Notes under the pieces: model-generated
The model's input: the letters and a program-made list of their open reading frames with translations, nothing else
Database searches by the model: none
Told to the model about the DNA's origin: nothing
Program-made: the position numbers and the translations under genes
NCBI GenBank assembly: GCA_965215005.1
Contig: CBDCCZ010000042.1
Coordinates: 192,001-256,000 of the forward strand
Reading direction: 5' to 3'
DNA length: 64,000 nt
Source: Kofleriaceae bacterium
GTDB lineage: Bacteria; Myxococcota_A; Polyangia; Haliangiales; Haliangiaceae
Part shown: positions 41,640 to 46,051 of the stretch, one piece after another
How positions within the stretch are numbered: the stretch's first letter is position 1
How the letters are laid out: each line of letters begins with the position of its first letter

Positions 41640-42563
41640 ATGAGCTTGAATTCGCAAGTGCGCGAGAAGATCCAGGGTCTGATCACTTCTGATGAAGTGG
41701 TGCTCTTCATGAAGGGCAACCGCAACTTTCCTCAATGTGGTTTCTCGGCCACCGTTGTACAGATTCTCAACAACCTCGTCCCGAGCTACACCACCGTCAA
41801 CGTGCTGGCGGAGCCGGACGTTCGACAAGGAATCAAGGAATTTTCCGAGTGGCCGACGATCCCGCAGCTCTATATCCGCGGCGAGTTCGTCGGCGGCTGC
41901 GACATCATTCGCTCGATGTATGAGGCCGGAGAGCTGCACACCATGCTCGGCGCGGCGGCGCCCAAGCCGCCAGCGATCGAGCTCACGCCCGCGGCTGCCG
42001 AAGCACTAACCGGTGCCCTAGCCGAAGCCGAAGCCGGTGACGTCATTCATTTGGCGATCGACGCGAGCTTCAATCATCAGCTCAACGTCGGCCCCAAAGA
42101 CAGCTCGGCAATGCTAGTGGAGAGCCGCGGCGTTCCTCTCTGCGTCGAAGCGATGTCGGGGCAGCGCGCCGACGGCTTGGTGATCGATTTTGTCGACGGT
42201 CCGCAGGGCACCGGCTTCAAGATGAAGAATCCCAACGCGCCGCTCGGGGTCGAGGAGCTCGAGCCCACGGCAATGCAAGCCAAGTTAACGGCCGGCGAGC
42301 TCGCCGAGCTCTTCGACGTGCGCACCCCCGCGGAGCGTCAGAGCGCTCGCATCGAGCCATCGCGCCTGTTAGATGAAGCCGCGATGGAGCATCTAGGCAA
42401 CCTCGACCGCAACACGCCGATCGGCTTCTATTGCCATCACGGCGCCCGCAGTCGCGCCGCCGCCGAGCACTTCGCGGAGCAGGGCTTCCGGCGCGTCTAT
42501 AACCTCGCTGGCGGCATCGATCGCTGGTCGCAGGAAATCGATCCCTCGGTGCCGCGGTACTAG
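41640..42563 (+). CDS. grxD: Monothiol glutaredoxin fused to an IscA-like domain and a rhodanese domain
   Basis: LFMKG...[18 protein letters not shown]; middle IELTPAA...[19 protein letters not shown]-terminal YCHHGARS...NLAGGIDRW. Confidence 0.9.
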
Positions 42564-44039: not shown

Positions 44040-45194
44040 GTGCCTCGGGTGCCCTTCTGCGTGCTTGTCCTTTCGCTTGGGCTGGCGATGCCGGCGCTGG
44101 CCAGCGGCGCGCCAAGCGACCGACCTCGCGTCGTCGGCGGCACCCCGGTGGCGGCCGGCGCCTGGCTCGACGCCGCCGCCGTCTACAGCAATGACGAGCT
44201 GTTTTGCACCGGCGTGCTCATCGCTCCACAGGTGATTCTCACCGCCGGTCACTGCTTGCTTGCAGTCATCACTCACGTCGAGCTCGGCGCCAATCGCCTC
44301 GGCGTTCCCGGCACGGTCTACGGCGTCGCGCGCCAAATCGCCTATCCGCGCTGGGAAAACACCTTTGACCTCGGCTTGCTGCTACTCGACCGCCCCAGCC
44401 CGCTGCCGCCGCGGCTCATCGCCAGCGGCTGCGCGAGCGAGCAGTACCTCGTCGAGGGGGCGCCGGTGACCATCGTCGGCTGGGGCGCGGTTGACGCCGA
44501 AGGTCGGGTGAGCACCCCCGAGCTCCTCGAGGCCGACACCCGCATCACCGATGCCAGCTGCCGCGACACCGCGGCCGGCTGCATGCCCGAGGCACAACCA
44601 CGGGGCGAGCTAGGCGCCGGAGGCGAGGGCATCGACTCGTGCAACGGCGACTCGGGCGGCCCGCTCTATCTGCGCACCGAGCGCGGCGATTTCCTCGCCG
44701 GCATCACCTCGCGCGGCTACGAAACCAACACGCTGCCCTGCTCCCAGGGCGGCATCTACGTGCGTCCTGACGCGGTTCTGGAGTGGATCGAGCGCACCGC
44801 TGGAGAACCGCTGCCGCGGCCCGTTTGCAACGCCGCGCCGGAGCCGGCGGTGCAAACGCTCGAGCTCACCGTTGGCGGCAGCGCCGAGCTGGTGCTCGAC
44901 CCGCTCGACCCCGACGCTGGCGATACCCACAGCTACGTCATCGCGACCGCGCCCCTTCACGGCAGCGCGGTCATCCGCAGCGATGGCACCCTGGAGTACA
45001 CCGCCGCGGCCGACTACGTCGGAACCGACTCCCTCGTTGTCGACATCACCGACAATGGCACCCCGCCGATAACTGGCGCCGCTCGCATCGAAGTAGTCAT
45101 CCGCGACGCCGGCGGCTGCAGCGCGACAGCAGCTCCCGGCGGAACGTGGCTACTGGCCCTGATGGCGCTGGGGCTGGGTCGACGCCGCGGATGA
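44040..45194 (+). CDS. Secreted trypsin-like (S1) serine protease with Ig-like domain and MYXO-CTERM sorting signal
   Basis: [38 protein letters not shown]...[13 protein letters not shown]. Confidence 0.92.
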
Positions 45195-45229
45195 AGCAGC
45201 GGCGCTTCCGCGGTACAGTGGCAGCGTCG

Positions 45230-45787
45230 ATGAGCGAGAAAACCTACTGGCAACGCTGTAATAGCTGCGACGCTGAGCTCGACTACGGCCAGACCTATTG
45301 GGTCTGCAGCGTCTCGACATGCACCCGCAAGCGCACCGGCATGCGCTTCTGCTCGGTCTCGTGCTGGGAGGCGCATCTGCCGATGATGCGTCATCGCGAG
45401 GCATGGGCGGTGGAGGAGAAAGCGCCGAGCGAAGTCGAGTGGCGCGCGATGCGGGCCGCCGAAGAGGCCGACGAGCCGCGCCTCCCAACGTCGAGCAGTC
45501 GCGAGGTGGCGCCTGCTCGACGCGAGGTGGCGCCTGCGGTTCGCCGCCGCGTGATCGGTGACAGCGAGAACAACGATCAAGACGCGCCGCGCGATGTGCT
45601 GGTCGTGGTCTCCAAGCTCAAGAAGTACGTCCGGGCCCGCTCCGGCATGAACACCTCCGACGGTGTAACCGACCTTTTGAGCGACCACCTGCGCAGCCTC
45701 TGCAACAAGGCTATTCGCGTCGCCGCGCAAGAGGGGCGCAAGACCGTGCTCGATCGCGATTTCGCCAAAGTGCTCGAGGGCGGCTGA
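45230..45787 (+). CDS. Bacterial histone-fold protein with N-terminal Cys/His zinc finger (ZZ-histone type)
   Basis: C-terminal DVLVVVSKLKKYVR...MNTS...GRKTVLDRDF with the histone RKT and RxxxxxD clamp; N-terminal CxxC...CxxxxC...CxxxCxxxH. Confidence 0.85.
   Translation: MSEKTYWQRCNSCDAELDYGQTYWVCSVSTCTRKRTGMRFCSVSCWEAHLPMMRHREAWAVEEKAPSEVEWRAMRAAEEADEPRLPTSSSREVAPARREVAPAVRRRVIGDSENNDQDAPRDVLVVVSKLKKYVRARSGMNTSDGVTDLLSDHLRSLCNKAIRVAAQEGRKTVLDRDFAKVLEGG
45500..45537 (+). repeat. 21-bp-period in-frame duplication in the histone linker (REVAPA x2)
   Basis: cgcgaggtggcgcctgc at 45500-45516 and 45521-45537. Confidence 0.85.
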
Positions 45788-45796
45788 GCCCAGCGC

Positions 45797-46051
45797 TCAC
45801 TCGCTGGCGAGGTCCAGCTCGAGGTGGAGCAGGACCTCGTCCTGGCTCGCCATGCCGCGGTTGCCGCCGCGCAGCTTCCAGCCCTCGAGCTGGCCTAGCT
45901 CGCGCAACACGGCGGCCAATACCCGCGGCTGGACGGACTCGTAGAACGCCTTGCGCCACTCATAGCCGTCGAGCTCACCGTCATAGTCCTCGGGGAAGGC
46001 GGCGCGCGCCTCCAGGCGAACGACCCACGTCGCAGATTCGGTGTAGTCCAT
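45797..46051 (-). CDS. Small hypothetical protein
   Basis: AGGAG RBS; 84 aa; coding-like composition. Confidence 0.7.
   Translation of the reverse strand: MDYTESATWVVRLEARAAFPEDYDGELDGYEWRKAFYESVQPRVLAAVLRELGQLEGWKLRGGNRGMASQDEVLLHLELDLASE

Follow-up and report, generated by a model that had tools for sequence, protein, structure and literature searches.

ZZ histones have been named and defined by their architecture, an N-terminal finger followed by a histone domain, with D0LYE7 of Haliangium ochraceum as the type example (Schwab 2024, PMC11390915). The available sections of that paper predict two zinc ions per ZZ histone for the family, print the ligands of the family profile as C10, C13, C41, and C43 together with C26, C31, H49, and H55, and describe the expression of the ZZ histone of Bdellovibrio as very low. 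The accessible text of Hocher 2023 (PMC10627809) mentions Bd3044 and, in general, bacterial doublets, and reports that Bd3044 does not readily substitute for Bd0055; the two papers combined would make Bd3044 the ZZ histone of Bdellovibrio. The DNA-contact residues of the histone HBb (Bd0055) are given in the available part of bioRxiv 10.1101/2023.02.26.530074 as T8, S9, K10, K12, K16, N22, S24, K52, T53, and R57. In the literature searched, mostly outside subscription journals, ZZ histones were found only in Schwab 2024, its preprint, and a passing mention in the HLp preprint (10.1101/2025.05.08.652872), as far as the accessible parts of these sources go. Within the same scope, with few subscription papers covered and sources partly accessible, neither a functional study of any ZZ histone nor a mention of free-standing fingers or finger-plus-double-histone forms was found.

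The protein described here (P0001) is encoded in the window, which denotes the whole 64,000-nucleotide stretch of DNA that was analyzed (Table 1). Alignments showed that it consists of two conserved domains, and its ligands and histone domain make it almost certainly a member of the published ZZ-histone family, in line with the original prediction of a zinc-finger/histone fusion of a recognized type. It is a typical member of a family already described; with a name since 2024 and thousands of members on record, that family gains little from this single gene. At E≤0.001, 3,244 of 3,494 candidate proteins were homologues. The named matches agreed with the suggestion of a myxobacterium-like genome, the host being probably a member of the Myxococcota from the Haliangium/Kofleriaceae group.

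Table 1. Features at the ZZ-histone locus (positions in the window)
Feature	Position	Strand	Evidence
Trypsin-like protease with Ig-like domain, 35 bp before the ZZ-histone gene	44040..45194	+	Domain search
Possible 13-aa N-terminal extension, less likely start	45191..45229	+	In-frame ATG
ZZ-histone gene, 185 aa (P0001)	45230..45787	+	Translation, homologues, codon-position statistics
Two-site zinc finger, C10 C13 C26 C31 C41 C45 H49 H55, predicted ZZ-like cross-brace, net basic	45257..45394	+	Alignments, model, fold searches
Predicted acidic helix, residues 68-81, after the finger	45431..45472	+	Model, charge
Variable low-confidence linker, RRR patch 105-107	45473..45586	+	Model, alignment
HBb/Bd0055-like alpha3-type histone fold (predicted), residues 122-178, RKTxxxxD and R170-D177 clamp	45593..45763	+	Sequence match, model, fold searches

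Reading frame and surroundings of the gene

Every motif quoted in the original prediction was present in the translation of the 185-aa frame, and the gene is, as stated there, contained in a mechanical open reading frame call at 44783, of which it forms the 3' part. The GC content at codon positions 1/2/3 was 0.64/0.51/0.81 for the ZZ-histone gene and 0.80/0.72/0.59 for 44783-45229, the segment that overlaps the trypsin-like gene in another frame; codon-position GC and this overlap ruled out the 334-aa call as a true gene. The 185-aa frame was taken as coding because the differences between its finger and those of 105 related loci sat mostly at third codon positions (3400, against 1986 and 2167 at the other two). 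Translation could also begin at an in-frame ATG at 45191, which overlaps the stop codon of the preceding gene (ATGA); the product would then have 198 aa, the recorded length (P0003). The shorter form was preferred because, in the 12 loci that share this upstream gene, the nearest start lay 2-5 residues before the equivalent of W7, compared with 6 residues in the query; the start positions in relatives thus favor 45230 over 45191. No Pfam family scored above the cut-off for the 185-aa protein, the best being CBFD_NFYB_HMF at E 0.029, and neither a sigma-70-like promoter nor a terminator was found flanking the gene on its strand.

Of 80 related loci, 12, mostly from records titled Kofleriaceae, also had a trypsin-like gene immediately before the ZZ-histone gene and in its orientation, at a distance of -26 to 81 bp from its start; this suggests lineage synteny and possible co-transcription with the ZZ histone. 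The neighborhood of the gene was not conserved across the 80 related loci. A conserved functional operon was considered and rejected, as no neighbor cluster, the gene itself and shadow frames aside, occurred in more than 14 of 81 loci. Also in the window, an 84-aa acidic frame (45797-46051, reverse strand) without a Pfam match converges on the gene and ends 9 bp from its stop, and a 307-aa fusion of glutaredoxin, an Fe-S biosynthesis-like domain, and rhodanese is encoded at 41640-42563 on the forward strand.

Histone domain, zinc finger, and linker

The C-terminal domain had been described as Bd0055-like, and an HBb-like fold was borne out by phmmer, Foldseek, and VIA. Residues 122-178 matched the HBb chains 8cmp and 8fvx (phmmer, E 2e-9), and the histone domain was predicted with a mean pLDDT of 86. 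The fold check proposed for these residues was carried out using Foldseek with the predicted model, and gave the histone fold: among the five best HBb chains, four superposed with an rmsd of 0.7-0.9 Å across 56-57 columns and the remaining one with 1.4 Å; the best match to the domain in VIA had a Z of 8.3 and an rmsd of 0.9 with 58 residues aligned. In the structure matches, HBb was ahead of the FtF histones HLp and HTkC. The HBb contact residues were mapped onto the query by the offset of the phmmer alignment and correspond to V127, S128, K129, K131, R135, N141, S143, K171, T172, and R176. Of the ten contacts in the available part of the HBb paper, nine were kept (eight identical and K16 replaced by Arg), and only T8 was lost, to Val. 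The alignment had 120 rows, comprising the query and 119 of the best 120 of the 3,244 matches, with the query's own record left out; K131, S143, T172, and R176 were invariant in all of them. The RKTxxxxD motif is formed in the query by R170, K171, T172, and D177, and the R170-D177 clamp was invariant as well. The positions that hold the FtF tetramer residues R48 and N52 are occupied by V164 and E168, the second position being Asp or Glu in 101 of 120 rows. At +4, the histone domain is no more than mildly basic, and it contains the conserved acids D144 and D175, where HBb has Ala.

The eight Cys/His ligands of the finger were invariant both in the 120 aligned homologues and in 107 of 107 fingers, and the finger modeled alone reached a pLDDT of 93. 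ZZ domains came first in both fold searches, weakly: one search had the p62 ZZ domain on top (E 0.13, TM 0.51/0.61), and the other gave Rsc8 (Z 4.8, rmsd 2.7, 49 aligned), Nbr1 (4.6), and ZZZ3 and HERC2 (4.0), these scores are low, with TRASH, HIT, and B-box rows no more than 1.5 Z away and MYND also near. Of the ZZ/PHD/TRASH-like finger expected in the original prediction, a ZZ-like type thus had weak support, with TRASH close by; no PHD finger was among the 50 listed fold matches of either search, a listing that leaves room for one further down. The ligand order is C6H2 against C4HC3 in PHD fingers, and a weak PHD_NSD match was seen in 4 of 107 members (best E 0.037). For the 107 members, 25 of 30 Pfam families were listed; ZZ was absent from this listing, and the weak matches included zf-FLZ, zf-FCS, C1, HIT, and MYND. 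Searched against the sequences of solved structures, the finger profile found ZMYM5 at E 0.17 and two chance matches, and the ESM Atlas returned unnamed clusters of 69-78 aa at 0.91-0.92 and zf-FCS at 0.86. "ZZ-like cross-brace finger" is a fair name, as a description of the predicted fold rather than of descent from the eukaryotic ZZ domains.

The 107 fingers had a mean net charge of +3.8, ranging from 0 to +7. R56 was basic in all of them, R33 in 91%, and position 14 in 99%; the query's own finger, at +2, was below the family mean, and its D14 was the only acid at position 14. Eukaryotic ZZ readers cage the H3 N-terminus with aspartates, one of which is invariable, and Asn is tolerated after the first Cys in p300/CBP, according to the available sections of PMC6138639. 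The residue after the first Cys is N11 in the query and Ser in 90 of 107 fingers. An acidic cage corresponding to D824/D848 of ZZZ3 was not found, as no column from C10 to C45 was acidic in more than 35% of the 107 fingers. D848 of ZZZ3 is presumably placed two residues before C41, i.e., at R39 of the query. The finger had been predicted to be a ZZ/PHD-like reader of histone tails; being net basic and having no conserved acidic column between C10 and C45, it spoke against this role, and a basic tail is an unlikely ligand for it. The finger is likewise seen as an unlikely histone-tail reader in the accessible text of Schwab 2024 (PMC11390915).

The linker ranged from 19 to 56 aa across the homologues, with a conserved RRR patch at residues 105-107. 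The REVAPA duplication pointed out earlier proved to be an exact 17-bp repeat, at 45500-45516 and 45521-45537, and was seen, among the proteins fetched, only in the query's own two records. Because it is private to the query and sits in the variable, poorly conserved linker, it carries no family meaning and was rejected as a functional element. The full-length monomer model had no fixed domain arrangement (pTM 0.52).

Other histones and free-standing fingers

A stand-alone histone had been expected elsewhere in the genome, and a profile search of the source genome found one besides the fusion (G000:C6:18358-18627, L001:6359-6628). It is an 89-aa protein of FtF type with a 29-residue Lys/Ala-rich N-terminal tail and with the FtF R and N residues present, and it had no Pfam match at E 0.05. 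No HBb-like stand-alone histone was found in this genome, which is 92.8% complete and of which all but 8 kb was available to the search. Among the 28 FtF-type histones collected, most had a Lys-rich tail starting with Ala-Ala/Lys-Arg/Lys after Met. The genomes G100, G120, G140, G150, G085, G095, and G055, all of one family, contained a ZZ histone together with a stand-alone HBb-like histone and a tailed FtF histone.

Co-occurrence was counted in a phylum sample, by hand, and in an order sample, both composed mostly of incomplete assemblies and of kin that are not independent, so that "not found" differs from absent. Finger and histone were present in one frame in 32 of 151 genomes of the phylum sample; an FtF-type histone was also present in 24 of the 32, and no other histone type was found in the remaining 8, where a purely accessory role of the fusion is not obvious. 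The order sample contained the finger in 100 of 101 genomes, which makes it a core gene of the order. With the high-scoring finger class (E≤5e-27, a cut set after the list was seen) taken as the fused form and an FtF-type match defined as E≤1e-13, 90 of the 101 genomes had the former, 79 had the latter, and 69 of the 90 had both, the FtF-type histone being not found in the other 21; the counts include the unpublished genomes G203 and G211, each scored as having both genes.

A finger followed by two tandem histone folds was found in at least 7 proteins (P0134, P0207, P0210, P0221, P0240, P0244, and P0266) among 147 newly listed representatives, with 150 shown of 302 matches; L116 (G060:C87) is the same protein as one of the seven. 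In P0134 and P0221, the RKT motif is no longer present in the second fold. A quick tree built from 77 domains and 62 columns, with several long branches, placed the query domain in a 37-row clade (SH-aLRT 98) together with 20 of 22 ZZ domains and every one of the 14 domains from the tandem proteins; this clade stood apart from all FtF and stand-alone rows. Among the same 147 representatives, 83 "finger only" rows were rejected as free fingers, since many look like contig-end fragments or chimeras.

A second, lower-scoring finger occurred in most genomes of the order. In 24 of 24 such loci (4 from the phylum sample and 20 picked across genera from the order sample), the frame ended 0-12 residues after the finger, and no histone was found within the 3-6 kb fetched. 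These paralogues (L112-L115 and L152-L171, e.g., L166:3034-3234) are mostly 62-77 aa long and have all eight ligands; they show a distinct CNtGR.KL.FC variant and charges of +3 to +9, more basic than the fused form. The cluster around them contained a type III pantothenate kinase in 15, a 372-aa unknown protein in 17, a thioredoxin-like protein in 16, and a weakly Fam20C-like protein in 18 of the 24 loci. The pantothenate-kinase cluster is kept in the source genome (G000:C17:2343-6969), although no free finger and no thioredoxin-like gene turned up in it there. At L117 (G039:C20) and L118 (G014:C103), a fusion-type finger is followed by an early stop with no histone domain detected nearby, and these two were regarded as truncations or assembly errors.

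Proposed mechanism and comparison with known systems

By analogy with HBb, the ZZ histone would pair with itself as a homodimer, which would bind the minor-groove DNA backbone without sequence preference and bend the DNA. Instead of a histone tail, the basic finger would probably bind something acidic, either the phosphate of DNA/RNA or an acidic surface on a protein, and could in this way raise affinity or recruit one partner to DNA; what the finger binds is the weakest point of the proposal. By analogy with the Bdellovibrio expression data, the protein may be a specialized chromatin variant of low abundance that accompanies a bulk histone, in this genome the FtF histone with its tail. We assign this mechanism as a whole a probability of about 0.55.

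It is rather unlikely that the basic finger folds onto acids of its own histone dimer and switches DNA binding, possibly by zinc or thiol oxidation. The basic finger, the conserved D144, D152, and D175, a linker that is long enough at 19-56 aa, and the thioredoxin-like gene often adjoining the free-finger gene are consistent with such a switch, but the monomer model lacked a fixed domain arrangement, the linker length varies threefold, and the free finger is conserved without an attached histone, so that its surface must have another ligand. Complex prediction using finger residues 3-82, two histone domains, and zinc gave a median of 0.31 against a mark of 0.32, with controls at 0.00, a result that carries no weight in either direction. 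Histone folds commonly heterodimerize, a second histone is present in the genome, and the doublets, with one finger per two histone folds, imply that one finger per dimer can suffice; the histone domain might thus pair with a stand-alone histone, as originally predicted, with a minority of dimers carrying the finger. We regard this pairing as unlikely, since the second histone, in which both tetramer residues (R and N) are present, is of FtF type and separates from the ZZ-type domains in the tree, each of the seven doublets consists of two ZZ-type folds, and a partner was not found in some genomes, the FtF-type histone being not found in about a quarter of the fusion genomes and an HBb-like one not in the source genome. 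Self-pairing is preferred because the tandem fusions join two ZZ-type domains and the FtF histone was not found in some fusion genomes; the sequences favor it over an obligate heterodimer, with occasional mixing possible. The near invariance of the HBb DNA-contact residues in the 120 homologues, together with the lack of a conserved neighborhood pointing to a regulated target, makes it quite unlikely that the histone fold is only a dimerization scaffold, as in TAFs, for a finger acting as a specific DNA/RNA-binding regulator, although the finger is as conserved as the histone domain and exists alone, and low expression in Bdellovibrio (available sections of Schwab 2024) would fit such a role.

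The finger might also bind the Lys/Ala-rich N-terminal tail of the FtF histone and link two kinds of bacterial histone on DNA, which we consider very unlikely. The source genome does have a second histone with a 29-residue Lys-rich tail, most of the 28 FtF histones are tailed, fusion and FtF histone co-occur in 24 of 32 and 69 of 90 genomes, eukaryotic ZZ domains bind the H3 N-terminus, and ZZ domains whose structures were solved together with N-terminal peptides are among the top fold matches. Against this, reading by ZZ domains depends on an acidic cage that includes an invariable Asp (accessible part of PMC6138639), and no such cage was found here; the finger is basic, like the tail, and the available text of Schwab 2024 takes the same view. 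Among the fusion genomes, 8 of 32 and 21 of 90 yielded no FtF histone in the searches, and the free fingers sit in a cluster without a histone gene. The boldest version, in which the finger is a true bacterial chromatin reader that recognizes a DNA-bound partner by the free FtF N-terminus, with the free finger competing as a regulator, is highly improbable too. If the finger did read histone tails, there would be a tail-and-reader histone system in bacteria, to our knowledge the first such link. Two natural forms are of use for work on the function of the family: the finger free of histone is a small soluble protein well suited to ligand identification, and the finger-plus-tandem-histone proteins provide a ready single-chain dimer for biochemistry and point to self-pairing.

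Compared with known systems, the query finger is a two-site Cys/His finger as in the eukaryotic ZZ domains of p62, HERC2, ZZZ3, BIG, Rsc8, and Nbr1, with 10-29% identity and an rmsd of 2.3-4 Å to eukaryotic ZZ, TRASH/MYM, MYND, and HIT fingers. The histone domain is 46-47% identical to HBb/Bd0055 (PDB 8CMP, 8FVX, 9EZZ, 9F0E) over 57-58 residues, and the RD clamp is common to both. However, HBb is a single domain of ~64 aa, whereas the query has 185 aa, with an extra 120 residues including the N-terminal finger, and HBb, abundant and apparently essential, contrasts with the scarce ZZ histone of Bdellovibrio. The FtF histones (HLp 9QT0, HTkC 9F2C) share the alpha3-type fold with the query domain at an rmsd of 1.0-1.2 Å, but the query lacks the R and N that build the FtF torus tetramer, both of which are present in the other histone of the source genome. 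With the published ZZ histones, the query has in common the architecture, the C4 + C2H2 ligand set, and the bacterial-dimer-like histone domain. Seven of the eight ligand numbers (C10, C13, C26, C31, C41, H49, and H55) equal those of the profile in the available sections of Schwab 2024, which prints C43 as the eighth where the invariant Cys of the query is C45. H. ochraceum has, as far as the accessible sources go, the same published pair as the source genome, a ZZ histone and an FtF histone (D0LYZ1). The query differs from the ZZ histones in no matter of kind; the 17-bp linker repeat and D14 are private to it.
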